In this document: one piece after another, positions 24,372-40,209 of the stretch
Numbering within the stretch: the first letter of the stretch is position 1
Layout of the letters: each line of letters opens with the position of its first letter
From: Bacilli bacterium
GTDB lineage: Bacteria > Bacillota_I > Bacilli_A > RFN20 > CAG-826
DNA length: 64,000 nucleotides
NCBI GenBank assembly: GCA_041652475.1
Contig: JBAZHG010000003.1
Span: forward strand, 4,656 to 68,655
Reading direction: 5' to 3'
Notes under the pieces: model-generated
What the model was told of the DNA's origin: nothing
Seen by the model: only the letters and a program-made list of their open reading frames with translations
The model's database searches: none
Translations under genes and position numbers: made by a program

Positions 24372-24400
24372 TTGACAATTAGGATTCATAAATCTATAAT
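24372..24400 (+). promoter_or_regulatory. Consensus sigma-A promoter (TTGACA-17-TATAAT) driving riboswitch 1
   Basis: TTGACA at 24372-24377 and TATAAT at 24395-24400, with a 17-nt spacer. Confidence 0.75.
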
Positions 24401-24413
24401 TTCAATTGTAAAA

Positions 24414-24480: not shown

Positions 24481-24505
24481 ATATTTTGGTCAATTGGCTT
24501 TTTTC
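24471..24505 (+). terminator. Intrinsic terminator whose 5' arm is the 3' strand of aptamer 1 (expression platform)
   Basis: gccagttg (24471-24478) pairs with caattggc (24491-24498), including one G-U pair. TTTTTT follows. Confidence 0.65.
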
Positions 24506-24524
24506 TTTAAATAAGGACGAACCG

Positions 24525-25430: not shown

Positions 25431-25431
25431 A

Positions 25432-27834
25432 ATGAAAAAAAGCGGCATCGTTAAATTCGGTTTGATTTCCACCCTGCTCGCGGCTTCGGCCTCGGTCATC
25501 GCTTTTACCTATGCCGCCTATTTGAATTACGATAAGTACATCCATCCGCTGGATTTGAACACGACCGCCCTCTCGAGCCATTTCGCCGGCGGGACCGGCA
25601 TTGAGACGAGTCCCTACCTGATTGCCAACAGCACCCATTTGCGGAATCTGCAAAAACTGACCACGCTTGGGGTATTCCGCAGCAACGCGTTCTTCGCCGT
25701 CCAAGATAGTTTCACATGGGACAACACCGACGGAGCCTTGCTTCCGATTGGGACCGAAGACAATCCGTTCTACGGCACTTTCGACGGCCGCGGCCGCACG
25801 ATCACCAACCTGATAGTAAACGGGGCGAACACCAACGACGTCGGCATGTTTGGTTACGTGGCCATGGAAGGGCTCATCCGCAATCTCGTCTTGAGCGCCC
25901 CAACTATTTATGTGACGGAAAACAGCGGTGAGGCCGCCGACAAGACGCGGCGGACCATGAATCCGCTTGATGATTATCTACTCACCTACGCGCAAGCGTT
26001 GAATGACGTCGACCTCGTGTCTTCGACCAGTTCCTCGGCCACCTTCTTGGTGCCGGAAACGAGCGTTTCCATTTCACTAGGCGGTTCCGTCGAGGATTTC
26101 GACATCGTCTACGAATCGACCGATACCGATCTTTTGTTTGAAAGTTCCCCCGGTTACTGGACGACGGCGGCCACCCCGGGTTCGACCAATCCGACCACCG
26201 ATCTCTATCCGGTGCAGTTATCGGCCCGCATCTTCGCCATTTACGAAGCGAAAGTAATTTCCTATACCTTGGAACGTTGGCAAATCAACGTCAAGGGCAA
26301 CGGCACCGTCGTCGATGACGCCGAATCCATTTTCAAGACCGTCCACCCGGCCGAAGCCGACCATGAGACATATGTCGGCATCTTCGTCGGGCATCTCGAC
26401 GGAGGTGCTTCTTATCTTGGATTATGGGGCGGGAATACTGACAGCACGACCGCTAACGGCAAGATTGTCGTCAACGGGCGAGCCGCCCGCAGTTTCAACG
26501 TCTTGGTGGGCCGGTCCCGGACCGACAATCCGCTCGATGCCACCGCGGCCAATTACTATAACCGTTTCATCAACTTCAACGAGGTCCTCTATAACAACCC
26601 GGGCATGCGCACCACATTGTGGTCGATTCCCCAGACCCCGCTGAGATCCTCCTATTTGACTCAAGAATCCAACGCCATTTCGGCGACGCAATCCTATGGA
26701 TTGACCGCGGCTGAGGCTGCCTATTTCCGGATTTATCCGCGCATTCAAAACACGGCCACCACGTTCGATGCCGTCGAAGACAATGGCACAATTACAACCG
26801 GCAAACCCTATTCGGGTTATGGAATCCGTTTCCAGCACGCCTCTTCGGGAGGGACAATCACCACTGACGGACGGTTGGGGGCAAGCGTCCGTGCCACCTT
26901 GCAAAGCACCACGTATTTCCGCCGCAATTTCAACGTCTTGAACGGATTATGGCTCTGGTCGACCGACAAGATCAACTCGCGGGCCGAAGACGTTTTTGGT
27001 TTAAACGAATTCGAAGTGTCGATCAATATGTCCTACGTGGCGACCTCGACCTCCTTGAACAATAAATTCCAAATCTTGTGGAACACTTATAATCCCGACG
27101 CCGTCTACAAGTTTTTATGGTGGACTTGGGAAGCCAACAAGGTCCAAAACGAGGCTTGGGGCGATTTGTCGGCCCAAACCACCGTGGTCGACGGAGTGAC
27201 GGTTCCGATTTACAGTCCCAACAACCATCCGTTGATCACCCAATTGACGCCGACCCGGACTTCGAGCGGCGTGATTCAGGAAACCTCGATCAATTTCGTC
27301 GTCAATCGCGAGGACAACGGCTTCTGGGAGAACTTATTTGACTACATCTTATTGAATGAACCCTATTACCCGATGTTTGCCTTCGGAGTCGGCAAAAACG
27401 GCACTTATACCACCGACGCTTACGTCCAACAAAGCATCAGCGGCACGACTTACCGCTTCTATGACGGCCGCTACGCCGTCGACAATTACACCTTGGACAT
27501 CTTGAGCATCGAGCTCCTTTTCACCGCCCGGGAAGGAAACATCTCCAATTTGCTGAACAACGTCGATTTCCTGTACTCGCTTCCGACCTACACCAACAAT
27601 CCGGACGGATCGACCACGTTCTCGGCTTGGAACAAAGCCTCGAAGGTCAAGGTTCAATTCAACGTCGAAGATCCCGCGCTGAACCAAAGCGGCACCACCT
27701 ATCGCTTCTGGCGGGTGGCCGGTTTCAGCGGCGTCAACTCCTACGTCAACGGCGTTTACACGACCGGGACCAATTACGCTCCCTTCAATACAGTTGGATA
27801 TGACAACGCCACATTGACCCCTGGAGCCGCTTAA
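25432..27834 (+). CDS. Large (800 aa) secreted/surface protein with an adhesin-like beta-helix/GLUG-type N-terminal module; locus protein B
   Basis: Start at MKKSGIVKFG, one nt after the stop of A. Signal ...ASASVIAFTYAAYLNY. Then GTGIETSPYLIANSTHLRNL...LPIGTEDNPFYGTFDGRGRTITNLIV...VGMFGYV..IRNL, a signature common to GLUG/beta-helix surface proteins. Confidence 0.6.
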   Translation: MKKSGIVKFGLISTLLAASASVIAFTYAAYLNYDKYIHPLDLNTTALSSHFAGGTGIETSPYLIANSTHLRNLQKLTTLGVFRSNAFFAVQDSFTWDNTDGALLPIGTEDNPFYGTFDGRGRTITNLIVNGANTNDVGMFGYVAMEGLIRNLVLSAPTIYVTENSGEAADKTRRTMNPLDDYLLTYAQALNDVDLVSSTSSSATFLVPETSVSISLGGSVEDFDIVYESTDTDLLFESSPGYWTTAATPGSTNPTTDLYPVQLSARIFAIYEAKVISYTLERWQINVKGNGTVVDDAESIFKTVHPAEADHETYVGIFVGHLDGGASYLGLWGGNTDSTTANGKIVVNGRAARSFNVLVGRSRTDNPLDATAANYYNRFINFNEVLYNNPGMRTTLWSIPQTPLRSSYLTQESNAISATQSYGLTAAEAAYFRIYPRIQNTATTFDAVEDNGTITTGKPYSGYGIRFQHASSGGTITTDGRLGASVRATLQSTTYFRRNFNVLNGLWLWSTDKINSRAEDVFGLNEFEVSINMSYVATSTSLNNKFQILWNTYNPDAVYKFLWWTWEANKVQNEAWGDLSAQTTVVDGVTVPIYSPNNHPLITQLTPTRTSSGVIQETSINFVVNREDNGFWENLFDYILLNEPYYPMFAFGVGKNGTYTTDAYVQQSISGTTYRFYDGRYAVDNYTLDILSIELLFTAREGNISNLLNNVDFLYSLPTYTNNPDGSTTFSAWNKASKVKVQFNVEDPALNQSGTTYRFWRVAGFSGVNSYVNGVYTTGTNYAPFNTVGYDNATLTPGAA

Positions 27835-27847
27835 TGGCGGACTAATT

Positions 27848-28729
27848 ATGAGTATGAACACTTCTTTAAAAAGAAAAATCCAATTATTCGCGACGATGAT
27901 GTCGTTGTCGCTTTCGCTGACGTCTTTCCTATATTTAAGCTACGCCTGGTTCACGAGCCAACGGCTCCATCAAACCCACATCATGGAAATCACCACCGAG
28001 GGCGGCCTCGAATACGCCATCAAGTATTATGATGGCAATTACAACACCCGCGACATCACAACCGGAACCAACTCCGGTTATCAAAGCCCGGCATCGCTCG
28101 TCAATCCGCTCGATCGGCTGGGCGTCAGCGATTATGAGGCCGAGTTCGATTTGATCACCCCCGAAATGATCGCCCCCGAATCGACGTCCAACCCCCTCCT
28201 TGTCGTCGACATCTATCCCGGCATCCAATACACCTTTGCGGTCGAAGTCACCAGTCAACTGGCGATGGAGCGCAACGTCGAATTCATCCTCAAGGAATTC
28301 ACGGCCCTGGGCGCCAGCAACGCGCGCGACAGCACTTCCGGCGACCCGATTTCACTAAGCAGCGCCATCGACATTTACGCGACGGCGATCGACACCCAGG
28401 ATATGACCGCCGGACAAGTGACCGCGGCTGCCCACGCCTTCGTGCAGGACTTGGCTCCGGTCGACCTGTTCGATAACGACAGCCAGGGTGGTTTGGTCTA
28501 TATTCCGCTAGTCGAGGACACTTTGGCCCCGATTGAAGGAGAAGACGAAAACAAAATCGTATTTTTGTTCACAATCAAGTTCTCGGACAGCTCCGATTCC
28601 TTTTATCGCTGGGTCTCTTATTCAAGCGGGATCAACTACTACGAAAAGAGTCCGCTCGGCAACTCCAACGTCTATCAAGCCAAGTCGTTTACCATTAACG
28701 AATTTTTGGTCCACGTCAAGGAACAGTGA
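27848..28729 (+). CDS. Secreted protein with a SipW-cognate signal peptide; locus protein C
   Basis: N-terminus ...SLSLTSFLYLSYAWFTSQ. Acidic, Thr/Ser-rich, with no Cys. Confidence 0.7.
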   Translation: MSMNTSLKRKIQLFATMMSLSLSLTSFLYLSYAWFTSQRLHQTHIMEITTEGGLEYAIKYYDGNYNTRDITTGTNSGYQSPASLVNPLDRLGVSDYEAEFDLITPEMIAPESTSNPLLVVDIYPGIQYTFAVEVTSQLAMERNVEFILKEFTALGASNARDSTSGDPISLSSAIDIYATAIDTQDMTAGQVTAAAHAFVQDLAPVDLFDNDSQGGLVYIPLVEDTLAPIEGEDENKIVFLFTIKFSDSSDSFYRWVSYSSGINYYEKSPLGNSNVYQAKSFTINEFLVHVKEQ

Positions 28730-28877
28730 AAAAAATCGTTGATGATTTCACAATTTGAAGAAGCGAAAAAAACGCGTCAAAGACGATCTTATTCTTTATA
28801 AGAAACGTGCGTGGATTATGCGTGCACGAGGGCAAAAAGAGCCCTAAAATAATTTTGAAAAATCGTAATCAAAATAC

Positions 28878-28906
28878 TTGCATTCGAAAAAAGGCATGCT
28901 TATACT
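28878..28906 (+). promoter_or_regulatory. Sigma-A-type promoter (TTGCAT-17-TATACT) for protein D
   Basis: Hexamers at 28878-28883 and 28901-28906. They leave a structured 5' UTR of about 140 nt. Confidence 0.55.
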
Positions 28907-29054
28907 ATAGGTGCCAATACAACAACATTGCCCCCTCAATGATTGCATGTGATTAGCGAAATTGCCCGTTAATTCATTGGCTTGGACCCATTACCCAGGC
29001 CGTAAACTCTTCCGAAAAATCGGGAGGGAAATCCAGAGGAGGATTTTTGTCATT

Positions 29055-29933
29055 ATGAAGACCACCAATAAATTACTGCTCTCAGCTTCCGCGATGTTAG
29101 TCCTCAGCGCCGGCGCCATGGTCACCGGAACCGTTGCTTGGTTTACCGCTACCCGTCAAATCGATGTCAATTTCTCGAACGTCAAAGTCATGACGACCCA
29201 AGCTGATTTGGCCGTCGAACTTGTCGGCACCGCTTATACCGCCACTCCTTCGCAAGGCGTCCTGGACATCTCAGGTGTCGATAGCACCGCCACCGATATT
29301 TCCGGCGACGGCGTCAACTTCTACAAGCCCGTTTGGGACGTTGACGAAGGCGTCACCGCCCTTGCCATTGACGACGTTACCGATTTATCTACTTATGAAG
29401 GATATTACGTAGAATTCCAGTTGAAAATCTCCCGTCTCAATCCGACCCCTGAAAATGGTTTCATGGTTTACTTGGGTGAAAACACCGCCATTGAACCGAT
29501 GACCACTGGAGATGCAGACGTTGCCGCGGCTGATTCCGCCCGCGTCGCCATCCTTAACTCCGCCAAGACCACCCGCAAAATCGTGTGGACTCCCGATACC
29601 GACGATAGCACCTATCAATACCTGGACTCCGTCGTTAGCGAAGAAGCTTATGGAGTTGATGACTTCGATTTAGTGTCCTATCCGGCCGAATCTACAACTG
29701 TCGATGATTTCTTAGTTGGTGATTTTGTGAAGCACGATACAATTGTTTCTACCACTGGTCACTCAGGTGGTAACTCCCCAGTCATCGCCGACTTGTCCAA
29801 TCCGACAAATTTCGAAATCATTACCGTCCGCATTTGGATTGAAGGTACTGATGAAGATACGGAAGAGAATACCGCCAAAGAAGGACAATTCACCATTACT
29901 TTGGATCTCTACTCAATGGGATTCTCAATCTAA
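29055..29933 (+). CDS. Candidate major fibre subunit, TasA-like SipW substrate; locus protein D
   Basis: Start at MKTTNKLLL, with GGAGG 12 nt upstream. Signal ...SAGAMVTGTVAWFTATRQ. C-terminal motif VRIWIEGTDEDT. Monocistronic, sitting between its own promoter and a strong terminator. Confidence 0.7.
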   Translation: MKTTNKLLLSASAMLVLSAGAMVTGTVAWFTATRQIDVNFSNVKVMTTQADLAVELVGTAYTATPSQGVLDISGVDSTATDISGDGVNFYKPVWDVDEGVTALAIDDVTDLSTYEGYYVEFQLKISRLNPTPENGFMVYLGENTAIEPMTTGDADVAAADSARVAILNSAKTTRKIVWTPDTDDSTYQYLDSVVSEEAYGVDDFDLVSYPAESTTVDDFLVGDFVKHDTIVSTTGHSGGNSPVIADLSNPTNFEIITVRIWIEGTDEDTEENTAKEGQFTITLDLYSMGFSI

Positions 29934-29989
29934 CAATCGATAGCTTAACTGCAAAAAACATCTGATTTACTAGTCTGATAAATAGAAAA

Positions 29990-30032
29990 GTCAGGGAAAA
30001 TCGCGCAAACGATTTACACCCTGGCTTTTTTT
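29990..30032 (+). terminator. Strong rho-independent terminator after protein D
   Basis: Compound stem gtcaggg..aaatcg / cgattt..ccctggc followed by TTTTTTT. Confidence 0.8.
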
Positions 30033-30113
30033 GTGTAGTATGAGGATTGGATAAAAAAACGTAATTTTTTATTACCATTATGTTATTATTTATTACATCA
30101 GGCGGAATATTTA

Positions 30114-30512
30114 ATGGAAAATGCTAGCAATAAGCCTAATAAGCGCGTCATCAATCTTGTTTTGACGATTGTCGAAATCGTCGTCATCGCCGTCTTGCTG
30201 ACCATCTCCTTGGTGGCCATGTTCACTCTCGAATCGAATACGGCCCCGGCCAACTGGTTCATGAAGTTCATTTTCTTCCTCCAGACCCAGACCATCTGGT
30301 TCTTCATCCTGATCGTCTTGCCGTTGATCGCTTTCTTCCTTTTCAATGGTTATCTACTGTTCCGAGTGATTTATAACGAGAAGGCCTCCAAGCCGGCCCC
30401 CGTCGTCGAAACCGTCGACAAGCAAGCCATGATCGAGGAAGCCAAGCGCCAGCTGCGCGAAGAGCTCTTGAAAGAAATAAAGAGCAAAGAATCCGAGAAA
30501 CCGAGCGAATAA
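30114..30512 (+). CDS. Small membrane protein (2-3 TM) with a charged amphipathic C-terminal tail; locus protein E
   Basis: 132 aa. The tail EEAKRQLREELLKEIK resembles the SipW tail. Confidence 0.6.
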   Translation: MENASNKPNKRVINLVLTIVEIVVIAVLLTISLVAMFTLESNTAPANWFMKFIFFLQTQTIWFFILIVLPLIAFFLFNGYLLFRVIYNEKASKPAPVVETVDKQAMIEEAKRQLREELLKEIKSKESEKPSE

Positions 30513-30532
30513 AGTCCCTTAAGGGACTTTTT
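30511..30532 (+). terminator. Rho-independent terminator after protein E
   Basis: aagtccc-ttaa-gggactt hairpin followed by a T-run. Confidence 0.75.
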
Positions 30533-30563
30533 CTTAATGATGATATTTTTTCAATCAATTTTG

Positions 30564-30591
30564 TTGACATCGACAAGCAGATGATTATAAT
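30564..30591 (+). promoter_or_regulatory. Consensus sigma-A promoter (TTGACA-16-TATAAT) driving riboswitch 2
   Basis: TTGACA at 30564-30569 and TATAAT at 30586-30591. Confidence 0.75.
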
Positions 30592-30605
30592 TGTAGGTGG
30601 AAAAG

Positions 30606-30680
30606 AGCAAAACTAGGGAAACCTAGCGACGCAAAGCTAAAGGGCCTGTACTCGAATAGAGGGATGGTAGCCAGTTGCCT
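30606..30680 (+). promoter_or_regulatory. c-di-GMP-I (GEMM-I) riboswitch aptamer, copy 2
   Basis: Hairpin CTAGG-GAAA-CCTAG (30613-30626), then GCGACGCAAAGCTAAAGGGCC ... GGTAGCCAGTTGCC. The cores are identical to copy 1. Confidence 0.8.
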
Positions 30681-30716
30681 AACGCGGAATAAGAACCGAC
30701 TTATCCGATCCCGGGC

Positions 30717-30741
30717 AATGATTGGTTAACCATCGTTTTTT
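30717..30741 (+). terminator. Candidate intrinsic terminator in the riboswitch-2 leader
   Basis: aatgattgg-ttaa-ccatcgtt (one bulge) followed by TTTTTT. The upstream GGCAA..TGG can pair instead with the aptamer 3' strand CCAGTTGCC. Confidence 0.5.
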
Positions 30742-30837
30742 ATTCCAAGGGGCTTTCCAGGGACGAATTTTCGTTCCTATGGGAGGTTACCACAGGTGAT
30801 TTGGCCAGCGTCTATATTAATGGGATAGACCATGCTG

Positions 30838-30870
30838 AACACCGGTGGAAACGATTCTAGCGGTGTTTTT
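30838..30870 (+). terminator. Second terminator-like hairpin in the same leader
   Basis: Perfect 7-bp stem aacaccg/cggtgtt with a 16-nt loop, followed by TTTT. Confidence 0.4.
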
Positions 30871-30908
30871 AATTAACATCGCCGCTGTTGGAAGGAGGAT
30901 GGCTCGTA

Positions 30909-31772
30909 ATGACGTATACCGAAAAGTATGCAGCTAGAAGGCGTCGAAGAATTTTCGCCTCGTTCATGCTTCTGGTATCAACAATTGCGATCGTCACCTT
31001 TATCCTCATCGCCTACTTAGGCAACGAAGTCGGACGCTACACGATTCAACTCAAGAGCAACAATACCCAGCTCACGATGGATTACTCGCGCGACTTCACC
31101 CGACCGACCACGCTATTAAGAGCCGACAGCCTCGAAAAAGTCTATCCGATCATGGCCGACAGTTTGCCGGAAGATGACGAGATCGACAATCAGGCGGGTT
31201 CCCACAACGGGGAATATCGGGATCAATACGACGAATTTGTTTACTCCTTGTACTTCGCCTATACCTTCTTCGTGAAGAATACGGGCGACACCCCGGCCGA
31301 CTATCAAGTCTGGGTGCGGTTGAAAACCTCGACTTCCGGCAATGCCGATGAAATGTCGATCGATGAATACGTCCGGGTTCGCATCTACGAAAACAGCGAC
31401 AACGGGACGGGCGAAGCCCTGACCCACGACAGTCGCACGATGGCTAAACGAACCAATCAAATCATCTACGACGACGAGAATCAACCTGAATACCGCGAAT
31501 GCGTAGCCCGCACGAGCGAAGACTACCGGACGTGTACGGCGAATAAGACGATTAACGCCCAACGCGCCGAAGAATTCCTGAATGTCCAAGAAATCACGCG
31601 CTATGAAATAACCGGGTTCGCCCCGCAAGCCGTCATGCGCTACACGATCGTCGTTTGGCTTGAAGGCGACGACCCCGATTGCCGGGGTCAAATTCCGACG
31701 AACGCCTCATTGGAGTTCTCGATGGACATCTCCTCGTTCTCGGAAGACGAAAGTTCCTCGATATCTGAATGA
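30909..31772 (+). CDS. N-terminally anchored or SipW-processed paralogue; locus protein F
   Basis: Start at MTYTEK, with GGAGG 10 nt upstream. RRRRR followed by a TM ending IAYLGNE. FFVKNTGDTP is a TasA-like F-x-N-x-G strand. Also carries the VVWLEGDDPDC motif. Confidence 0.65.
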   Translation: MTYTEKYAARRRRRIFASFMLLVSTIAIVTFILIAYLGNEVGRYTIQLKSNNTQLTMDYSRDFTRPTTLLRADSLEKVYPIMADSLPEDDEIDNQAGSHNGEYRDQYDEFVYSLYFAYTFFVKNTGDTPADYQVWVRLKTSTSGNADEMSIDEYVRVRIYENSDNGTGEALTHDSRTMAKRTNQIIYDDENQPEYRECVARTSEDYRTCTANKTINAQRAEEFLNVQEITRYEITGFAPQAVMRYTIVVWLEGDDPDCRGQIPTNASLEFSMDISSFSEDESSSISE

Positions 31773-31800
31773 TATTTAAAATGAAAGGCAAAATGAATTT

Positions 31801-32949
31801 ATGAAAAACAACAAACGAATCGCTATCGCCGCCGCCACCTTTGGAATCGCCGCTTTAGCGATGGGAGGCAGCACCTTCGCCTGGTTCCAAGTGGCGAACA
31901 CTGCCAACTTAGCTCTTGAAGGGACCGTCGTCGGAGTTGACAACAATCTCGACGTTGGTTTTAAGACGACTAATCCGGTGGACGGATTTGCCGCTTTAGG
32001 TCTAGATTTTGACGGAGAATTGAGCACCGTCGTGGCGTCTCCGCTTGATCCCGAAGCGCCGGTTTACCCTGATGAGTACGAAGACTTCGTCTACTGGGCG
32101 CCCCACAGCGTCAACTCCGGCATCATGGCGGCCGTGATTGAAGCTTCCGGCTTCAACTCCAGCAATATCTTGAACACGATTACTTCGGGTTCGTTCGACC
32201 GCGACGCGGTCGTCGCCGAAGAAATCCTTCCTCTATACTTGCGTCCGGAATTCGATGCCAACCGCACCGAGCGCTACGTCGCTATCGACAGCGTCGCCCC
32301 GACGACCAGTTATGTCGGATTCTCGATTCTGTTCCGAGCCCTCGACGAAGAACTTGAAGGGGTGGAAACCGCCATCTACTTCGACGAAGGCACCCAAGTA
32401 GCCGCCAGCAAGAACGCCGTCGGCGCCCTGCGGGTCGGCTTTGACAACGGGATCCGTCCCGACATCATCAAACCGAGCGCCGTTGCGGCCGACTCGATTG
32501 CCGTTGGCGGCGTCATGGATCTCAATGGCGACGGTGCCAATGACTACACGCTCCAACAATACGACGAAGTGACGGCCTTGCCGCTTCCGCTTTACGAAGT
32601 CGCTTATGGCGAATTCGACGAAGTCCTCGTCAATGGGGATTGGGACGATGAAGCTGAAGATGCTGGCGTCACTCCGAGCCGGCTCAGCAATGACAAGTTC
32701 TACGAAGGCGAGACGGCTACGGGCGTCAACGCTTTCTTGTCCGGCGCCAAGGCCTTGACCGCCGATTTCAACACCTTTGCCGCCTACAGCGCGACCGGCA
32801 CCCCGATCGCGACCACTGATGACACGACCGGCATCGCCGAAGTCGACTTCATGATGTGGCTCGAAGGCTGGGATTTGGCCGCGGTCAATTCCATCTCCAA
32901 CGCCAAAGTCGGCGCGGCCCTGGCCTTCATCGCTCCGGATCTCTACTAA
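31801..32949 (+). CDS. TasA-like SipW substrate paralogue; locus protein G
   Basis: Signal ...AALAMGGSTFAWFQVANT. Motifs AIYFDEGTQV, ALRVGFDNG, MMWLEGWDLAAV. Confidence 0.7.
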   Translation: MKNNKRIAIAAATFGIAALAMGGSTFAWFQVANTANLALEGTVVGVDNNLDVGFKTTNPVDGFAALGLDFDGELSTVVASPLDPEAPVYPDEYEDFVYWAPHSVNSGIMAAVIEASGFNSSNILNTITSGSFDRDAVVAEEILPLYLRPEFDANRTERYVAIDSVAPTTSYVGFSILFRALDEELEGVETAIYFDEGTQVAASKNAVGALRVGFDNGIRPDIIKPSAVAADSIAVGGVMDLNGDGANDYTLQQYDEVTALPLPLYEVAYGEFDEVLVNGDWDDEAEDAGVTPSRLSNDKFYEGETATGVNAFLSGAKALTADFNTFAAYSATGTPIATTDDTTGIAEVDFMMWLEGWDLAAVNSISNAKVGAALAFIAPDLY

Positions 32950-33022
32950 TACTACTTTCTACCCGCTTTCATGATTGAAAGCCATCATAAATCATTTTAA
33001 ACATAACGAAGGGGGTGTGGCG

Positions 33023-34105
33023 ATGAACAGCCGTATTATTGAAAATGCCAAGCTTTCGCTCGCCACCCTCGCCTTCATAGCATCAGTCGGATCGCTGATC
33101 ATTGGCACGGTGGCGTGGTTTGCTTCTAGCAACTATCTCGAACTCGCCAACTTCAAAATCGCCATGGGCGAAGCCGAACAAGTGGAAATCGGACTGGTGG
33201 TTCCCGAAGGGAAACCCAATCTGGGCGAAGCCGAATCAATCGTCTATTACGAGACGGTCACCGACGAAATGCTCCTCAATCACGAATACTACCAGCCAGG
33301 GACGACCCTCAAAGCCGTTTCCAGCATGTTCCAGTCGCAATGGCTCTCCGAGGAAACCGACTTGACCGACCCGGATCTGTATCCGGTTCTGCGAAGCCAT
33401 TACCTCGCCAACCAATCGCGGACCGACAGCGTGGTGGCCCATAGCAACTTCTACCAATTCGAAATCTACATCCGATCGACCGTCCGCATCGACTTGTATC
33501 TGGACGAGGGCACCTATCTAATGGCCAATGAAACCAAGAACCAACAAGCCGCTTACAAATACGGTCTTGACGCGGCCAAACTGAACCAAGTCGACCAAGC
33601 GATGCGCGTCAGCTTTCTTACCCCCGAGCAATTCGCCATTTGGGAACCGAACACCGACGTGGTCGGCACGACCGAATTCGGCGGACGCCTCGACGTCTAT
33701 GACTACGACAACTACTTTGACTATGATTACGACACTAAGTTAGAATATATGTTTGGTGAGTATAACGCCGACGCCTATCTCGTCTATGACGAAAGCGCCC
33801 GAACCGTGGCTGTGACCGAATTCTCTTCTTTCGCGGCCAACACCGCCGAGGAAGCGATTCCGCTCAGCATTCCGATGTCGAAGCAAAACGGCCTCGTGAT
33901 CCAACGGGAATCGAGCGTGACCAAGCATTATCTGACCGATCAAACGAACCCCGATGCCGCTTTGATGCGCCTATATCCCAACGAACCGCAACGGATGGTC
34001 GTCACCGCCTACGCCGAAGGCTGGGATCGTGATACCACCAACGCCATCAACTTCGCCAACTTCTCGCTGAATCTCGTCTTCGGAGGCATTTACGCCCCCT
34101 TGTAA
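33023..34105 (+). CDS. TasA-like SipW substrate paralogue; locus protein H
   Basis: Start at MNSRIIEN, with GGGGGTG upstream. Signal ...GSLIIGTVAWFASSNY. Motifs DLYLDEGTYL, AMRVSFL, YAEGWDRDT. Confidence 0.7.
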   Translation: MNSRIIENAKLSLATLAFIASVGSLIIGTVAWFASSNYLELANFKIAMGEAEQVEIGLVVPEGKPNLGEAESIVYYETVTDEMLLNHEYYQPGTTLKAVSSMFQSQWLSEETDLTDPDLYPVLRSHYLANQSRTDSVVAHSNFYQFEIYIRSTVRIDLYLDEGTYLMANETKNQQAAYKYGLDAAKLNQVDQAMRVSFLTPEQFAIWEPNTDVVGTTEFGGRLDVYDYDNYFDYDYDTKLEYMFGEYNADAYLVYDESARTVAVTEFSSFAANTAEEAIPLSIPMSKQNGLVIQRESSVTKHYLTDQTNPDAALMRLYPNEPQRMVVTAYAEGWDRDTTNAINFANFSLNLVFGGIYAPL

Positions 34106-34132
34106 TCCTTAAAGATTGGAGTCCAATCGTCG

Positions 34133-35641
34133 ATGAGTGATTTCTTCCTTTACATCCGAATGATGTTCCAAGCCGTGTTTACCAACCTCGGGGCTTTTTT
34201 CAAGAAGGCCATCATCGATCCCTGGGGGACCGTGCCGACGCAATTCGTCTATTACAAGGATTATTTTGAAGAATACTCACCCGGATTTGGATTTTGGGGT
34301 TGGACCTTTTACATCCTCTTCCTATTGATAGTCTTAGCTTTTTTTGCCGCGTTGGTCTATCTATGCGTCCGATTGATCCGCCACTATGTGGCCAATTACG
34401 GATCCAAGGTCGAAAAAGCCAAGCTTATTGATCAAATCCAAAAGCTCAACTACGAATTGTTCATGGCCGTGAGCGAGAAAAACCGGCTCCTCAATTTGAA
34501 GATGGGTAACATCCCGATGCCGAAAGGCGAAGAAGACGAAGACCAAGAGGAAGACATCCGTTTCCCGAAGCTGATTGCCGTCGACCGCAAGTACGAGAAT
34601 TTGAACCTCACGATCGAAATCCCGGCCTCAGACGCGATCCCGCTCGACGAGATGGCGACCCGCTTCCGGGCCTTTGCCGCCTCGCAGCTCGGCCTCTATT
34701 ACGACATCGACCTGGTCCGGTTGATGTTCGCTGGCATGGGCACGACCAAAGTCATCATCCTGGAAGGTATCTCCGGCACCGGCAAAACTTCCTTTCCGTA
34801 CGCCCTTGGAAAATTCTTCCAAAACGACGCCCAGATTTGCTCGGTCCAGCCCTCGTGGCGCGACCGGAGCGAACTTTTGGGCTATTTTAACGAATTCACG
34901 AAGAAATTCAACGAAACCGACTTCTTGAAAGCGTTGTACGAAGCCTCGTGGCGCAAAGACAACAACATCATCGTCCTCGACGAAATGAACTTGGCTCGGA
35001 TCGAATACTATTTCGCCGAATTCCTCTCGATGATGGAAATGCCCGACTTCAGCGAATGGAAAATCGAGCTGATCAACAATCCGGACTCCGATGATCCCAA
35101 GAATCTCAACGAAGGCAAGCTTTTGATTCCCCAGAACGTCTGGTTCTTCGGCACGGCCAATAACGACGACTCGACTTTCTCGATCACCGACAAAGTCTAC
35201 GACCGGGCCGTCTCGATCACCTTCGAGCACATGGGCGAACCGTTCGACATCGAATTCAAGGAACCGGTCCTCATCACCTACGATTATATGAACGATTTGT
35301 TCGCCAAAGCGCGGACGAACTTCCCGATCAGCGCGAAGGCGCTCGAGAAATTCGACAAACTCGACGATTTGGTCTTGAGCAAGTTCAAAGTGGCCTTTGG
35401 AAACCGGACCATGAAGCAATTGAAAAGCTTCGCTCCGATCTACGTCGCCGCCGGAGGCACCGAGGTCGACGCCATCGACTTTATCTTCGCGACCAAGGTC
35501 TTGAAGAAGTTCGAAACCTTGAACGTCGCCTTCCTGCGGAACGAGCTCAAAGAGCTCCTGTCGGAAATCGACAAGCTCTTCGGCAAATCGGCCTTCCAGA
35601 AATCCAAGGCGTTCATCAATAACCTGATCAAGATGGGATAA
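34133..35641 (+). CDS. Membrane-anchored McrB-family (AAA_5) AAA+ NTPase; locus protein I
   Basis: One TM (WTFYILFLLIVLAFFAALVYLCV), then a coiled coil. Walker A GISGTGKTS, SVQPSWRDRSELLGYF, Walker B IIVLDEMNLARIEYYFAEFLSMME, and FFGTANNDDSTFSITDKVYDRA. These are all McrB-family hallmarks. Confidence 0.75.
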   Translation: MSDFFLYIRMMFQAVFTNLGAFFKKAIIDPWGTVPTQFVYYKDYFEEYSPGFGFWGWTFYILFLLIVLAFFAALVYLCVRLIRHYVANYGSKVEKAKLIDQIQKLNYELFMAVSEKNRLLNLKMGNIPMPKGEEDEDQEEDIRFPKLIAVDRKYENLNLTIEIPASDAIPLDEMATRFRAFAASQLGLYYDIDLVRLMFAGMGTTKVIILEGISGTGKTSFPYALGKFFQNDAQICSVQPSWRDRSELLGYFNEFTKKFNETDFLKALYEASWRKDNNIIVLDEMNLARIEYYFAEFLSMMEMPDFSEWKIELINNPDSDDPKNLNEGKLLIPQNVWFFGTANNDDSTFSITDKVYDRAVSITFEHMGEPFDIEFKEPVLITYDYMNDLFAKARTNFPISAKALEKFDKLDDLVLSKFKVAFGNRTMKQLKSFAPIYVAAGGTEVDAIDFIFATKVLKKFETLNVAFLRNELKELLSEIDKLFGKSAFQKSKAFINNLIKMG

Positions 35642-35644
35642 ACC

Positions 35645-37159
35645 ATGAAAAAGCCCGAATCGACAATTAAAAAACTGCAAACCAAATATTCCTCGCGGTT
35701 TTTGAAGTTGTTCAAAACCAACGCCGAATTCCAGCAATTCGTCGATTTGATTCGGAATTCCAAAGGAAACGTCTTCTCGTCGTTAGCCCGGGTCGAAACC
35801 CGCAAGTTCGACGAGGAATGGATCAAAGAGGTGGAAGCCGGCGTCGTCGCCATCGAGAACATCATCATCAACCCGAAACGGTTCATCAAGTTCCAATCGG
35901 AAGTAGTTCCGATCGAGATGGCCAAGAAGACCGGATCGGAGAGCATCCGCCACCTGGCCATGAATTCCCAGTTCATCAAGAAAATCGACGACAAGGGCAA
36001 CGTCATGCCCGAGAAGATCTTGAACATCTCCACCGATGACGAGCTGGCCATTTACGAAAACCGGTTCGTGGTCACCTTGATCCGCAAGTTGGTCCGCTTC
36101 ATCGAACTGCGCTACGACTATATCCAAAAGAAAGCCGAAATCCGCGATAGCGATTTGCTCTTCATGAAGAGCAGCCTCGAGATCGAAGGCGCCGTCTATG
36201 AATACGAAGGTAAGCTCCGTTTGTCAATCCCGTCGGCCGAAGGCGGCCAAAAGGACGCTAACGACGAACTTTTGAAGCGGATCACCGAAGTGCGGCAACG
36301 GGTCATCTTCATGCTTTCGTCCGAATTCATGAAAACGCTCAAAAACGCCATCCCGGTCACCAACCCGATCCAGATGACCAACATCATGAAGAAGAACCTC
36401 GACTACATCAAGGCTCATGACCTGTGGAAGTTCCTGGACCGCTACGACCAATTGGGCGTCACTTTCCAAATCAAGGAAACGACCAACCAGTTCAACGAGA
36501 ACAACTTAAAAGACATATACGCGCACATCGGCGCCTCGCTATTGATGGTCAACACCGACAAGACCAAGAAGATCAAGGTACCGAAAGACCAAATCAAACG
36601 CCACAAGATCATGCCGCGTTTCGAAAACCCGATCCTGGACAAGGACTTGACCGACGAGCGCTTCCAAGTGTTCGATAGCGGCCGCAAGGTCAGCGTCAAA
36701 ACCTTGACCCCGGCCCAGGAAGCGGCCTTGAAGAAACGCCGAGAATTAGCCGAAAAGAAACGTCAAATCAAACAAGCGCTGCTAGCTAAGAAGAAAAAAC
36801 GCGATCAGGAACGCAAAGAACGCGAAAAAGAACGCCAACGCCAGCTCGAAATCGAACGCAAAGAAAAAGCCGAAACCCGGCGCCTGGCCGCCGTCGAAAA
36901 GGAACGCCTGGCGAAAATCGCCGCCGAGGAACGGGCTCAAACCTTGGCTCTTGAAAAAGCCGAACGCGAATCGTTGAAGAAAATACTCGACGAAGAAAAA
37001 CGCCGCTTGGCCGAAGCCCGCCGCCATGTCAAAGCCATCGCCGCCGCGCAACGGAAAAGCGAAGAACCGCAACCGGCGGTCGCCGAAAACCCCGCCTCCG
37101 AGAATATCCCCGAGGATAATCCGGAACCGGCCGAAGCAATCACCGACATCACCCAGTAG
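35645..37159 (+). CDS. McrC/DUF2357-like N-terminal domain protein without a recognisable nuclease motif, with a long Lys/Glu/Arg coiled-coil tail; locus protein J
   Basis: Starts 3 nt after I. Has ..SIRHLAMNSQF..IYENRFVVTLIRKL.., as in McrC-like partners, but I found no D-x(n)-(D/E)-x-K block. The last 150 aa or so are a KKRRELAEKKRQ...EKERLAKIAAEERA charged helix. Confidence 0.5.
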   Translation: MKKPESTIKKLQTKYSSRFLKLFKTNAEFQQFVDLIRNSKGNVFSSLARVETRKFDEEWIKEVEAGVVAIENIIINPKRFIKFQSEVVPIEMAKKTGSESIRHLAMNSQFIKKIDDKGNVMPEKILNISTDDELAIYENRFVVTLIRKLVRFIELRYDYIQKKAEIRDSDLLFMKSSLEIEGAVYEYEGKLRLSIPSAEGGQKDANDELLKRITEVRQRVIFMLSSEFMKTLKNAIPVTNPIQMTNIMKKNLDYIKAHDLWKFLDRYDQLGVTFQIKETTNQFNENNLKDIYAHIGASLLMVNTDKTKKIKVPKDQIKRHKIMPRFENPILDKDLTDERFQVFDSGRKVSVKTLTPAQEAALKKRRELAEKKRQIKQALLAKKKKRDQERKEREKERQRQLEIERKEKAETRRLAAVEKERLAKIAAEERAQTLALEKAERESLKKILDEEKRRLAEARRHVKAIAAAQRKSEEPQPAVAENPASENIPEDNPEPAEAITDITQ

Positions 37160-37173
37160 AAGGAGCGCCGCCC

Positions 37174-37917
37174 ATGACCAAGGAAAACAAAAAAGCCAAG
37201 AGCATTGGATCGAAAATCGTATCATGGATTTTCGGGACTTTGATCGTGGCCATGCTGGCCTTTGAAGGCTATGGGCTCATCAGTTCACGAAGCAACCACG
37301 GAGTTCCGAATTTCTTCGGCTATCAATTCCTGGTCATCCAAACCGATTCGATGGACCTCGGCCCCGACACCTATCCGGTCGACATGGGCATCGTTGTCAA
37401 AAAAGTGGATCCCTCCACCTTGGTGGCCTCAACCGAGACCTCGGCTCACGACGGCGACGTGATTACGTTCTACCGTCGGTTGGATGGACGCGTGGTCACC
37501 CATCGCATCATTGAAATCGACGAAAACGCCTCCGGCTTGGTGTTTGTCTGCCTCGGCGACAACCTTGATGCCGAAACCTGCCCCGCCGGCGGTTGCAGCG
37601 AATCGAACGCCGACCGCATTCCCGAAGCCGACGTGATGGGCAAAGTCGTCAACAAGTCGGCCGCCCTTGGCACCGCCTATCGCTTCTTGTCGAATCCGGC
37701 CACGATGCTCTTGCTCGTATTGATTCCCCTGGCGATTCTCGTGGTCCTGTCGGCCATCGATTTCGTCAAAGCCTTGAAAATGAAGCAAGCTCCCGCCCCG
37801 GTGGGAGCGCCGATACTGACAAAAGAAGACATGGAAGCCATCAAAGAGGAGGCCCGCCGCTCGCTTTTAGAAGAATTAAAGGCGGCCCCCAAGGAGGATG
37901 AAACCAGTGAAAAATGA
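37174..37917 (+). CDS. sipW: Signal peptidase I, SipW (ER/archaeal) type
   Basis: GAAGGAG upstream. FFGYQFLVIQTDSM (catalytic Ser), GDVITF, VTHRII (catalytic His), GDN, a C-terminal TM and a charged tail. Collinear with B. subtilis SipW. Confidence 0.85.
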   Translation: MTKENKKAKSIGSKIVSWIFGTLIVAMLAFEGYGLISSRSNHGVPNFFGYQFLVIQTDSMDLGPDTYPVDMGIVVKKVDPSTLVASTETSAHDGDVITFYRRLDGRVVTHRIIEIDENASGLVFVCLGDNLDAETCPAGGCSESNADRIPEADVMGKVVNKSAALGTAYRFLSNPATMLLLVLIPLAILVVLSAIDFVKALKMKQAPAPVGAPILTKEDMEAIKEEARRSLLEELKAAPKEDETSEK

Positions 37918-39478
37918 AGAAAAACGATTAAAACACCGGTTTTTTGCCATTCAATTTGACATCCCGATTGCGATATTGGGGGCGAGTTTGATCGCCATCA
38001 TCGTCGTGGCGAGCGTCATCATGGACAATGGCGTCACCGACGGGCTCTTGACCGCCGAATTGCAGACGACCTTGATGACCTTCGGGGCCTTGATTGTCGC
38101 CATCATGGTGGCGCTGGCCTTCGTTGGCACCTTCCGGAGCAAATTCATTCACGGCCGCCGCTTGAACGAAGACATTTTCGCCACCGATCGCGGCGTCTTC
38201 AGCGAGAAGATGTTCGTCGATTCGATTTCAAAACGGGTCGGCCGCTACAACGGCCAGGCGGCCATCATCGCCTTCTCGATTTTCGAATTGAAGAAAATCG
38301 TCTTGAACATGTTCGGCTACCGGATGGTGGCCAAGATCGCCGGCTCGATTTCGAGCACGCTCATCAACCGCTACCAAGGCAAAGAGCATCGCGACATCGT
38401 CTATGGCTTCGACTACAACGAAAACTTCCTGTTGTTCCTGCCTTTCAGCAAGGGTCCCGACGAGGTGGCCGAGGAAATCAACAAGCTTAACGAAGAAATC
38501 CAAACGATGATCTTCAAGAACGGCTTGAACATGGACATCAACATCTTCTACGGCGTGTACATTCACAACAACCCGAACCTCAACAGTTACGAAATGATCC
38601 GGCGCGCCTTGATTGCCGCCGATTTCGGCATCCGCAACAAGATCAAGACCAACCAATTCGAAGAATACATGCTCGACGCCAACCAAACCGACCTCGTGCT
38701 GTCCAACGAATTGTCGGCGGCCATCGAACGCAAGGAACTCGAAATTTTCTACCAGCCGAAATTCGACATTAAATTGAACCGGTTCTTCGGAGCCGAGGCC
38801 CTGATCCGGTGGAACCACCCGACCCGCGGCCTTTTGTATCCGTCGTCGTTCATCCCCTTTGCCGAACGCAGCGACCTCATCACCCGGATTGACCGCTACG
38901 TCATCCGTCAGGTGATGGAAGACATCGCCTACTGGAAGGACAATTCGAAACGGCTCTTGACGGTGTCCATCAACTTATCGCGCCGCAGCCTTTATCAAAG
39001 CGATTTGATGGATTACGTCAACCAAACCATCAAGGAGACGCGGGCCAACCCGCTTTTGATGGAATTCGAATTGACCGAATCGACCGCTTCGCGCGACCTG
39101 TTGTTCGTCTCGGCGATGATGAAGCGATTCAAGAACATCGGCATCAAAGTCTCGATCGACGACTTCGGGACCGGCTATTCGTCCTTGAGCTACCTGAAGA
39201 AGATGCCCTTCGACACCATGAAAATCGACAAATCGTTCTTCGACGACATCGAAGTCGACAAGAAAGCCCGCGACGTCGTCAAAGCGATGATCGACGTGGC
39301 CTTGGCCCTCAACGTCTACGTGGTGGCTGAGGGCGTCCAGACCGCCAAGCAAGTCGCCCTCCTCAAACAGATGGGCTGCCACGCCATCCAAGGCTTCTAT
39401 TATTCGCACTCGCTGGCGCGTGACAAATACGAGCAATTCCTGCAAAATAATAAATTCGAGGGGGATAAAGCACCATGA
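37907..39478 (+). CDS. Membrane-bound EAL-domain c-di-GMP phosphodiesterase with a degenerate GGDEF domain
   Basis: Two TM segments. The GGDEF position reads FDYNENF. The EAL domain is intact: GAEALIRW, SINLS, ELTES, DDFGTGYSS, KIDKSF, EGVQ, QGFY. GTG at 37907 has the best SD spacing (GGAGG at 37893-37897); the ATG at 37898 is an alternative. Confidence 0.85.
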   Translation: MKNEEKRLKHRFFAIQFDIPIAILGASLIAIIVVASVIMDNGVTDGLLTAELQTTLMTFGALIVAIMVALAFVGTFRSKFIHGRRLNEDIFATDRGVFSEKMFVDSISKRVGRYNGQAAIIAFSIFELKKIVLNMFGYRMVAKIAGSISSTLINRYQGKEHRDIVYGFDYNENFLLFLPFSKGPDEVAEEINKLNEEIQTMIFKNGLNMDINIFYGVYIHNNPNLNSYEMIRRALIAADFGIRNKIKTNQFEEYMLDANQTDLVLSNELSAAIERKELEIFYQPKFDIKLNRFFGAEALIRWNHPTRGLLYPSSFIPFAERSDLITRIDRYVIRQVMEDIAYWKDNSKRLLTVSINLSRRSLYQSDLMDYVNQTIKETRANPLLMEFELTESTASRDLLFVSAMMKRFKNIGIKVSIDDFGTGYSSLSYLKKMPFDTMKIDKSFFDDIEVDKKARDVVKAMIDVALALNVYVVAEGVQTAKQVALLKQMGCHAIQGFYYSHSLARDKYEQFLQNNKFEGDKAP

Positions 39479-40209
39479 TCCTGATCCTTGGCTCCAACGA
39501 AGACGACATTCTTTATTTCATCAACCGCATGAACGTCGCCGGCATCGAGGAAATCGGCAGCCGCGTCAAAGTATACACGGGCGATTTCGCCCGGCAGCAA
39601 GTCGTGGTCACCTATACCGGAACCACGATGATGATGGCTTCGATGATCGCCGGGATGATGATTCAAAAATACCGGCCCTACCTCGTCGTCAACGTCGGAA
39701 GTGCCCACTCGATCCATCCCAAACTGAAACAAGGCGACCTCTTCCTGGCCGAGCGGGTTTACCTCAGCCACGTCGACCAGACGCCTTTAAACAGCAAAAT
39801 CAAATTCGGGCAGTTGCCCAGCGGGGCGATGTTCACCCACTCGGAAGACATGTGTCTGAACATCATCGAAATGCACAACAACCGCGAAGCCAACAAGACG
39901 ATCGTCCGCGGCTTCATCCTTAGTTCCAACCTTTTGATCACCAATCTTGAGGAAGCCAAGGACCTCGTCAAGAAGTACTACCAGCCTTTGAGCGAGATGA
40001 TCGCCATGGATACCGAAGTCGGCGGCATCGCCGTCGCCTGCCAATTCTACGACGTCCCGATCGTCTGCCTCAAAGCGATTACCTATGAAATCGGCAACAA
40101 GGAGCAATTCCTCTCCCGGGAACGCATCGGCGTCGAGATGACGCCCATCGTCGGCAACTTGATCGGACACCTCTTTCTGGAGTTGGCCAGCCAAGAACCG
40201 GTGCAATAA
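39475..40209 (+). CDS. PNP_UDP_1-family protein, MTA/SAH-nucleosidase-like but divergent
   Basis: ATGA overlap with the EAL gene. LILGSNEDD, VVNVGSAHS and AMDTEVGGIAVAC align by eye to MtnN. The (S/T)D catalytic Asp position reads ITYE. Confidence 0.55.
   Translation: MILILGSNEDDILYFINRMNVAGIEEIGSRVKVYTGDFARQQVVVTYTGTTMMMASMIAGMMIQKYRPYLVVNVGSAHSIHPKLKQGDLFLAERVYLSHVDQTPLNSKIKFGQLPSGAMFTHSEDMCLNIIEMHNNREANKTIVRGFILSSNLLITNLEEAKDLVKKYYQPLSEMIAMDTEVGGIAVACQFYDVPIVCLKAITYEIGNKEQFLSRERIGVEMTPIVGNLIGHLFLELASQEPVQ

Follow-up and report, generated by a model that had tools for sequence, protein, structure and literature searches.

A membrane-anchored McrB-type GTPase and its nuclease-less McrC-like partner are associated with SipW-like signal peptidases in a cyclic di-GMP riboswitch-headed cluster of Bacilli

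McrBC is the textbook GTP-dependent restriction enzyme. According to the literature on it, McrB assembles into a hexameric ring, McrC binds this ring through its N-terminal domain, and a conserved Arg/Lys of McrC repositions the signature Asp of the GTPase, stimulating GTP hydrolysis. A related architecture was named 'CoCoPALM' by Bell et al. (eLife 2024), in one paragraph and with its analysis deferred to a future paper: a GTPase with an NxD signature that usually continues with E or a second D is joined to an FtsB-homologous domain with transmembrane (TM) and coiled-coil helices, the likeness to FtsB being at the level of HHpred. We found no later paper that mentions the name. Here we describe such a gene pair, I (34133-35641) and J (35645-37159), in a stretch of 64,000 nt from a Bacilli bacterium (GenBank assembly GCA_041652475.1, contig JBAZHG010000003.1, positions 4,656 to 68,655 of the forward strand), hereafter the window. 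The pair belongs to a cluster of 13 genes (A-M, 24486-40209), and all window features given below are on its + strand. I and J share with CoCoPALM an NxD McrB-like GTPase with a TM and coiled-coil N-terminus, a DUF2357 McrC homologue with a long helical extension, and an association with signal-peptidase-family proteins, in this case the product of gene K, 14 nt downstream of J. We found no architectural difference between the two, and the pair very probably belongs to CoCoPALM, in a dedicated role outside defence. Since the architecture was named in 2024, our claim to discovery is limited; the kind itself is functionally uncharacterised and biologically striking. What is new here is the riboswitch control, a tail motif common to SipW-like proteins and the small protein E, the recognition of E as a SipW remnant, the lack of any nuclease family in the scanned relatives of J, the predicted N-out topology of I with its ectodomain, the existence of two cluster types, the prevalence of the system, and its cultured hosts.

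An earlier note, made from the letters of the window alone, had placed protein I (502 aa in the list of open reading frames) in the McrB family, and all the motifs it quoted are present and align to Escherichia coli McrB. GISGTGKTS begins at residue 212, QPSWRDRSELLGYF at 239, VLDEMNLARIEYYFAEFLSMME at 281, GTANNDDS at 340, and DRA at 357; their counterparts are Walker A, Walker B/'DEINRANLSKVFGEVMMLME', and 'MNTADRS...RRR' of the E. coli protein (GISGTGKT pairs with GPPGVGKT, VLDEMNLARIEYYFAEFLSMME with IIDEINRANLSKVFGEVMMLME, and GTANNDDST...DKVYDR with GLMNTADRS...DYALRR). Walker A lies at 34766-34792, Walker B at 34973-34990, the N-N-D-D signature at 35159-35170, and DKVYDR at 35189-35206, within an AAA+ GTPase core that motifs and alignments place at about residues 170-365 (34640-35227). 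All NTPase motifs, GTANNDDST included, are invariant in 123/123 homologues; judged from these sequences, the catalytic elements are under strict purifying selection. E. coli McrB was the sole PDB family matched by the sequence of I, with an E-value of 9e-4 for the single sequence and 5.8e-06 for a profile of the 42-sequence family that we used for Pfam and PDB profile work, the alignment spanning McrB residues 177-351. Pfam AAA_5 was found in 40/42 family members, with the window protein itself below threshold, and the NCBIfam McrB model gave 16.5 bits against a cut-off of 637. I is thus best described as a distant McrB relative and not an equivalog. In the AlphaFold2 (AF2) model, residues 383-501 (35279-35635) form an all-helical, lid-like C-terminal domain with a predicted local distance difference test score (pLDDT) of 78-92 and a conserved FGNR..KQ motif. 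The Foldseek check that the note had recommended for I, run with the full-length model, returned AAA+ proteins (MCM, RavA, BrxL, NorQ, dynein, and TgMcrB of Thermococcus gammatolerans), generic AAA+ proteins coming ahead of McrB; the long helices that dominate the full-length models are the likely reason for the poor Foldseek results on both I and J.

The closest annotated relatives of I are coiled-coil GTPases of CoCoNuT-like plasmid loci (E 1e-47 to 2e-55, versus about 1e-3 for E. coli McrB). We found such loci in Deinococcus sp. AJ005 (p96k), Rhodoferax antarcticus, and Synechocystis (pSYSX); each encodes a DUF2357 protein next to an AAA ATPase of about 720-800 aa, and the Synechocystis locus also has a PLD nuclease gene. 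The plasmid GTPases appear to fall in the same NxD(+D/E) group as I, with 28-42% identity over residues about 140-480, and share with the window pair helical GTPase extensions and DUF2357 partners. In a MAFFT alignment, N343-N344-D345-D346 of I fall column for column with GTANHDE/GTMNEDE of these proteins; NNDD also fits NxxD in an ungapped alignment with NTAD of E. coli McrB, so the alignment can be read with or without the 'deletion'. CoCoNuT GTPases differ from I in their length of about 720-800 aa and their long soluble coiled coils, with no TM segment. Moreover, CoCoNuT systems, the coiled-coil nuclease tandems, by definition combine a nuclease-less McrC with tandem or adjacent nucleases in every case, be they HEPN, PLD, Vsr-like, or of other kinds (Bell et al. 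2024), whereas we found no match to a nuclease family for any of the 13 proteins of the cluster or for its flanking genes. I also matched the PADLOC model PDC-M26A (E 9.6e-40) over its NTPase core only (residues 186-305), which probably reflects its likeness to defence-type McrB-like GTPases. PADLOC calls PDC-M26 when both components are present, and J matched no PADLOC model at E up to 1; we found no literature on 'PDC-M26'. Separately, an unannotated 46-kb 'Bacteriophage sp.' contig from human faeces (MT835511.1, 39950-41104) encodes an NxD-type GTPase core 33% identical to residues 145-459 of I, which may belong to a phage-borne CoCoNuT-like system.

The N-terminal part of I sets it apart from the restriction enzyme. 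Residues 56-79 (34298-34369) are a TM helix with a Kyte-Doolittle (KD) hydrophobicity of 2.45 (mean 2.55 over 40 homologues, range 2.03-2.98), and AF2 predicts residues 53-124 as one unbroken helix. Counted over the 15 aa next to the TM, Lys plus Arg come on average to 0.48 on its N-terminal side versus 4.45 on its C-terminal side. By the positive-inside rule, I is therefore predicted to be a single-pass membrane protein with N-out/C-in topology, which would leave the GTPase in the cytoplasm and a module of 55 residues outside. This conserved extracytoplasmic or interfacial module (residues 1-55, 34133-34297) consists of an amphipathic helix (3-23) followed by an aromatic-rich 'DPW..VP..F..Y...FG..GW' segment, and P30, W31, F38, Y41, F52, G53, G56, and W57 in this region are invariant or near-invariant. 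Helix 3-23 was considered as a second TM and ruled out, as it is strongly amphipathic (family KD 0.49, hydrophobic moment 1.04). On the other side of the membrane, a coiled-coil stalk (residues 80-124) leads into an acidic disordered linker (125-145) ending in RFPK (34370-34567 for both). In the stalk, over residues 81-124, 62% of a/d positions are hydrophobic versus 35% elsewhere; residues 123-139 have pLDDT <50, and the linker varies from 24 to 51 aa across the family, always ending in RFPK, RFSK, or RFPR. Hydrophobicity, the AF2 helix, the heptad bias, and the charge asymmetry all bear out the note's description of the N-terminus as a TM helix plus coiled coil. We detected no DNA-binding family in library scans of I and its 42-member family; residues 1-145 are accounted for by ectodomain, TM, stalk, and linker.

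Protein J (504 aa) starts 3 nt past the stop of I (TAA-ACC-ATG), as the note had read the junction. It carries SIRHLAMNS at residue 100 and YENRF at residue 137. J itself stays under every Pfam threshold, and its affiliation rests on its relatives: DUF2357, the McrC N-terminal domain, was found in 26/57 aligned family members (best E 1.1e-13) and above the gathering score in six of 10 further relatives, chosen for having the least-charged C-terminal extensions, in which residues about 64-190 align to profile positions 94-218. A HMMER search with residues 1-320 gathered 1443 clusters at 50% identity, and YEN[RK] is kept in 145 of the 146 best. These results uphold the note's assignment of J to the DUF2357/McrC-like proteins. 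In the AF2 model (overall pLDDT 79), residues 1-310 (35645-36574) form a McrC N-terminal-like globular domain (pLDDT 80-96), in which residues 167-196 make up a long beta-hairpin and residues 200-310, apart from one strand, are mainly helical. The globular part is connected by a disordered linker to a single long Lys/Glu/Arg-rich helix of 115 residues (356-470, 36710-37054), and the protein ends in an acidic, Pro-containing disordered tail (471-504, 37055-37156; assigned from composition and pLDDT <50). The note had called J a coiled-coil protein; the charged helix and the acidic tail are there as it said, but because 54% of the helix residues are charged and hydrophobic occupancy of its a/d positions is just 24-35%, the helix appears closer to an ER/K-type single helix than to a classical coiled coil. 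In PDB, a profile search retrieved nothing but charged helices such as those of TolA domain II, myosin VI, and IF2. Its length differs among relatives (median tail 313 aa), and the tails are charged family-wide. We considered the possibility that J is a cryptic nuclease and ruled it out: no nuclease family was found in J or the 67 relatives scanned (57 plus 10), the AF2 model shows no nuclease fold, and the family invariants (H103, P122, Y137, E138, N139, and R156) form no PD-(D/E)xK-like acidic/Lys triad. The absence of a nuclease that the note had suspected is thus borne out. As a side observation, one predicted protein of 2240 aa (P0299) joins a J-like DUF2357 domain (about residues 221-482) to 15 Big_2 repeats and other Ig/PKD domains; either a cytoplasmic-type domain has truly been fused to surface repeats here, or the protein is an artefact of gene calling or assembly.

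We scanned 185,579 species genomes for relatives of I; at least 592 carry one, among them cultured Acholeplasma laidlawii with record CP103951.1, and 80 were fetched. Over 90 related loci annotated with profiles, with denominators that vary by feature, J adjoins I in 82/83, and a SipW-like gene lies no more than 1.5 kb downstream in 72/73; in 28/78 a second SipW-like gene stands immediately upstream. Thus, I, J, and SipW form an almost invariant triad. Proteins of the A/C/D/F/G/H families are present in 73/90 loci and an EAL gene in 52/90. The whole cluster is syntenic at loci L001-L003 of close relatives, L006 on a 1.48-Mb Bacilli contig, L007/8 of Candidatus Onthovivens, and L009/10 of a metagenome-assembled genome (MAG) labelled Erysipelotrichaceae, and synteny reaches Acholeplasma, Izemoplasmatales, and Clostridia-labelled MAGs. 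Between distant loci, I is the best conserved of the 13 proteins, with 55-57% identity versus 24-46% for the others. The flanks of the window cluster are metabolic (DegV, GNAT, an FAD oxidase, an FGGY kinase, and GlpA-like dehydrogenases). No full-length copy of I turned up on 72,556 plasmids or in 50,697 phages searched with tblastn, only NTPase cores of 28-42% identity lacking the TM module. Several contigs with Bacilli-type clusters (L026, L044, L021, L034, L068, and L070) are filed under Escherichia coli, Bacteroides uniformis, Hallerella, Paludibacteraceae, and Bacteroidales 'cleanbin' or co-assembly MAGs, and are probably mis-binned or wrongly labelled.

Gene K (37174-37917) encodes a putative SipW-like signal peptidase I of the endoplasmic reticulum (ER)/archaeal type with Ser (DSM), His (THRI), and GDN boxes. 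Its scores for NCBIfam SipW (E 2.8e-15, 56 bits versus a cut-off of 190) and TIGR02228 (E 3.2e-08, 33.6 bits versus 51.85) point to a family-level relative of SipW and not an equivalog. Past their C-terminal TM, the SipW-like proteins have an amphipathic tail (e.g., EDRERLKKELLNEML; 37819-37887 in K), and a similar motif (30417-30488) ends the small membrane protein E (30114-30512). A simple regular expression for it matched 38/112 SipW-like proteins and 5/31 E proteins, no other assigned family, and 0/1896 unassigned open reading frames. Indeed, when the E family was compared with the SipW-like families using hhalign (probability 97-98%, E 2e-11 to 3e-14), the segment before the TM, the TM, and the tail all aligned, which makes E the C-terminal module of SipW left without its catalytic domain. 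E and the second, upstream SipW are mutually exclusive: they occur in 31 and 33 loci, respectively, and in none together, which defines two cluster types, E...I-J-K and K-I-J-K. Homology and exclusivity together suggest a core of the form [SipW or SipW remnant]...I-J-SipW, in which the tail shared by the partners faces the cytoplasm, where I and J are predicted to reside.

The pair is embedded in an operon. As the note had stated, it sits between H and the sipW-like gene with no internal signals: we found no terminator-like site on the + strand between 30530 and 38070 and no promoter-like site on that strand within I or J. The genes are tightly spaced (27 nt between H and I), and K overlaps L, which overlaps M. 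A promoter-like site with 12/12 consensus positions (sigma-70-like, 30564-30591) is followed by a cyclic di-GMP (c-di-GMP)-I riboswitch (30596-30682; RF01051, 63.9 bits against a gathering score of 35). With a terminator-like hairpin (30511-30530) on its 5' side and gene F on its 3' side, this aptamer is placed to head an F-G-H-I-J-K-L-M operon; two weak hairpin-plus-U-run candidates lie 3' of it at 30720-30870. A second riboswitch of the c-di-GMP-I type (24405-24484; RF03167, 55.7 bits, E 6.5e-11, just under the gathering score of 59), again preceded by a 12/12 promoter-like site (24372-24400), heads A-B-C. Among the window and the 15 other examined loci in which the region upstream of the F-like first gene is present, a c-di-GMP-I aptamer directly precedes that gene and so heads the I/J operon in 16/16, including Acholeplasma laidlawii and three Clostridia-labelled MAGs. 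Elsewhere, too, the aptamers stand just past perfect promoter-like sites, as at 2643-2717 and 8488-8571 in L006, 764-839 and 6887-6962 in L009, and 6317-6395 in A. laidlawii (L094). Gene L (37898-39478) encodes a predicted membrane EAL phosphodiesterase (Pfam EAL, 1.9e-71). Overlapping its end, gene M (39475-40209; Pfam PNP_UDP_1, 2e-14), the last of the operon, encodes a phosphorylase-superfamily protein, for which nucleotide-signal turnover and an effector role are both possibilities. The order K-L-M is conserved, and M keeps its place at the operon end in the clusters that carry E. A riboswitch upstream and an EAL gene inside the operon would make the cluster a surface or lifestyle module that is under c-di-GMP control and feeds back on itself. 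We found no paper linking c-di-GMP riboswitches, Acholeplasma, and SipW.

Besides E and the genes from I to M, the cluster encodes seven proteins with signal-type segments that are hydrophobic and N-terminal. Four of them, the products of A (24486-25430), B (25372-27834), C (27848-28729), and D (28962-29933), are secreted or membrane proteins; the other three, from F (30888-31772), G (31801-32949), and H (32975-34105), have SipW-type signals and a C-terminal W-x-E-G-x-D motif. Directly past the hydrophobic segment, A-W-F is found in A, C, D, G, and H, and A-A-Y in B. In the D family, W26 is invariant and A25 and F27 are at least 90% conserved; in the G family, T25, A27, W28, E355, G356, and W357 are conserved, W28 being near-invariant. 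W-x-E-G-x-D near the C-terminus is common to the D and G families and to F and H of the window (e.g., 'IWIEGTDED', 'VVWLEGDDPD', 'MWLEGWDLA', and 'AYAEGWDRD'). D, F, G, and H appear to make up an undescribed family of SipW-type substrates. In a study of TasA cleavage (PMC10269814), Phe at P2' demands SipW, and the A-W-F signals of the window resemble the TasA cleavage context described there in having an aromatic residue at P2'. The note's placement of I and J inside an operon with SipW and A-W-F-type signal proteins holds. Genes A-D are syntenic in L001, L006, and L009. For D, A, B, and F, the mechanically assigned TTG starts probably lie 5' of the true ones; likelier ATG starts are MKTTNK (about 29055), MKRKQK (about 24522), MKKSGI (about 25432), and MTYTEK (30909, preceded by GGAAGGAGG). 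Clusters also include very large secreted proteins with no family match (B, 820 aa; at least 2476 aa downstream in A. laidlawii, L094 17394-21542), which could be tip adhesins or cargo.

The catalytic elements of I and the ring-binding domain of J are kept and the DNA-directed parts are replaced, so the most economical reading is a J-regulated, membrane-tethered GTPase ring. By analogy with McrBC, six I subunits would form the ring, and one J would bind it through its DUF2357 domain and beta-hairpin and trigger GTP hydrolysis. Six stalk-TM-ectodomain legs would stand in for the DNA-binding domains and pass the hydrolysis cycle across the membrane, beneath which the ring would hang at a distance of about one stalk length. 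SipW cleaves its substrates on the outer face of the membrane. There it would cut the A|W-F signals, and processing would be coupled to the ordered release, polymerisation, or anchoring of subunits, with the cytoplasmic tails of SipW and E as likely docking sites for the ring or the J helix. Expression would be set by the c-di-GMP riboswitch, and the EAL enzyme of the operon would feed back on it. We infer, then, that the most likely function of I and J is that of a GTP-driven membrane-tethered ring coupling SipW processing to surface-fibre assembly. We see an even chance that an McrBC-derived GTPase module was exapted from restriction into a vertically inherited part of a c-di-GMP-regulated SipW-substrate cluster, where it couples processing to assembly; that its role is mechanical, in assembly or mechanotransmission, we propose tentatively. 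Bolder, and in our view somewhat doubtful, is the idea that I6-J is the power unit of an unrecognised class of NTP-driven surface filaments. Docked on the SipW tails, it would mechanically link cleavage of the signal peptide to the polymerisation or anchoring of a new pilin family marked by the A-W-F signal and the W-x-E-G-x-D motif; the filaments would be switched by c-di-GMP and would serve Acholeplasma, Izemoplasmatales, and other wall-less Bacilli as their main surface organelle.

The main rival to a mechanical ring holds that I and J are a regulatory GTPase switch, timer, or checkpoint that licenses SipW or the initiation of fibres, for instance by way of the cytoplasmic SipW tail, and does no mechanical work, with the variable J helix as a spacer or as a tether to a further partner in the cytoplasm. 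The cytoplasmic tail motif common to SipW and E would suit a regulatory docking site, and the operon is embedded in c-di-GMP signalling through its riboswitch and EAL gene; SipW-dependent secretion elsewhere is not known to need a dedicated NTPase (B. subtilis TasA), and work by Terra and colleagues from 2012 reportedly gives the C-terminus of B. subtilis SipW a signalling role apart from its peptidase activity. However, invariant catalytic residues together with a conserved stalk-TM-ectodomain are more typical of force-transmitting AAA+ machines, and for a mere modulator it would be unusual to be the most conserved protein of the cluster; we regard the switch as unlikely. Its ancestry in Type IV restriction, its nearest annotated relatives in CoCoNuT-like plasmid systems, and the PDC-M26A match of I raise the question of whether the module is still defensive, as an McrBC-derived sensor guarding the pilus or fibre apparatus, for instance from phages or DNA that enter there, through a non-nuclease effector such as M or membrane disruption by the TM legs of I. 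PNP_UDP_1-type domains are nucleotide-degrading effectors in some defence systems, and a gene with this domain has been kept as the last of the operon. Yet there is no nuclease and J has no PADLOC match, the strict, housekeeping-like synteny across at least 592 species genomes is unlike that of patchy mobile defence islands, the flanks are metabolic and full-length copies were absent from the plasmids and phages searched, and c-di-GMP riboswitch control is typical of surface and lifestyle genes, all of which makes this very unlikely. The note had offered, beside a repurposed motor, a degenerate defence module trapped in the operon. On the strength of invariant motifs, the strong conservation of I, synteny, and metabolic flanks, we reject the degenerate module and favour the repurposed motor; of the findings named in the note as able to overturn it, J shows no nuclease fold, the TM of I is real, and the homologues are nearly always linked to SipW rather than gathered in defence islands. 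A last proposal makes I and J a division or envelope-organising factor of wall-less Bacilli: the GTPase would be brought to the divisome by an FtsB-like TM and coiled coil, the link to SipW being secondary. It draws on the HHpred-level FtsB similarity of the N-terminal module (Bell et al. 2024), on one homologue labelled 'cell division protein FtsL' by JGI, and on a single Pfam DivIC match, but none of the 90 loci contains division genes, the constant neighbours being SipW and secreted proteins, and the system also occurs in Clostridia-labelled MAGs; we consider it the most improbable of all.

Several observations weigh against the ring that we prefer. The FtsB homology reported for the N-terminus of this architecture was not reproduced: DivIC was matched by 1/42 members (E 0.019), and comparison of the I family by hhalign with just one FtsB sequence, that of E. 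coli, a weak test either way, gave a probability of 0.9%. For J, the Foldseek check foreseen in the note gave E. coli McrC (6hz4_M) the highest probability, 0.72, but with an E-value of only 0.11. The oligomeric state, the binding of J to I, and the GTPase activity are all carried over from McrBC. The secreted proteins have no Pfam, NCBIfam, or PDB match (in two profile-versus-PDB searches); TIGR04088 hit 3/40 members weakly (best E 0.021) and Peptidase_M73 hit 1/38 (E 0.29). With no likeness of the substrates to TasA, camelysin, or any solved structure, 'fibre' and 'pilus' are our own reading, and a TasA nature of these proteins finds no sequence support. The TasA-type fibres of B. subtilis are not known to need an NTPase for their assembly, and since cleavage is on the outer face, the energy requirement is not obvious. 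Finally, the triad is not absolute: a single exception, a Clostridia MAG (Tb.RUG.494, L004), has the arrangement I-J-I', and no SipW-like gene and no riboswitch were detected at this locus. Here (9668-19009), two I paralogues of 473 and 449 aa, both with a TM, flank a J-like gene (557 aa); the next genes encode a 194-aa membrane protein and a 1383-aa membrane-anchored protein with a transglutaminase-like motif read by eye, and the locus lies directly 3' of rpsM-rpsK-rpsD-rpoA-rplQ.

In sum, a branch of McrBC that has lost DNA binding and nuclease and is conserved as a putative membrane machine in at least 592 species genomes would be a case of a defence module exapted to cell-surface biogenesis. 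If the ring indeed powers or gates SipW fibre assembly, the view of fibres as self-assembling without energy would be overturned, and the cluster would define the surface organelle, unknown until now, of Acholeplasma, Izemoplasmatales, and many 'Bacilli' MAGs from the gut; as a filament class of its own, it would represent a principle of pilus assembly independent of the sortase, chaperone-usher, type IV, and TasA-type systems. The locus is experimentally accessible in cultured Acholeplasma laidlawii, and the riboswitch offers a handle for switching it on and off through the level of c-di-GMP.

Set beside canonical McrBC (E. coli 6hz4/6ut6; Thermococcus gammatolerans 6ut3), I has an alignable Walker A/B, N-x-(x)-D, and Arg fingers, and a DUF2357 partner gene follows immediately downstream, the two genes being apparently translationally coupled. 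The differences are an ectodomain, TM helix, and stalk in place of the N-terminal DNA-binding domain, a J lacking the PD-(D/E)xK nuclease, a low sequence similarity (E about 1e-3 to 1e-6), and a chromosomal, syntenic, vertically conserved position in a secretion operon instead of a mobile defence island. Like the window cluster with its putative peptidase K, SipW fibre systems (B. subtilis TapA-SipW-TasA, B. cereus CalY/TasA, and C. perfringens SipW-BsaA) encode an ER/archaeal-type signal peptidase with its substrates, are under biofilm or surface-lifestyle regulation, and have A-x-F past the hydrophobic segment. They differ in having no known NTPase (the 'McrB' mentioned in the C. perfringens SipW paper is merely part of an E. 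coli strain genotype), whereas the mature domains of the window proteins have no detectable TasA/camelysin (Peptidase_M73) likeness, and the clusters described here combine six to eight paralogous substrates, one or two SipW with a conserved tail, and riboswitch control. The type IV pilus, Tad, and archaellum machineries are analogous in function only, with a cytoplasmic hexameric NTPase, a dedicated signal peptidase, and multiple pilin-like substrates; mechanotransmission in MacB and FtsEX, where energy crosses the membrane while the NTPase transports no substrate of its own, is again a functional analogy only. In neither case is the NTPase, a PilB/secretion ATPase or an ABC protein, related to the AAA+ McrB-type. 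Moreover, no PilC-like polytopic platform protein was recognised in the window cluster, and whereas the aspartyl peptidase PilD of type IV pili cuts on the cytoplasmic side, the Ser-type SipW cuts outside.

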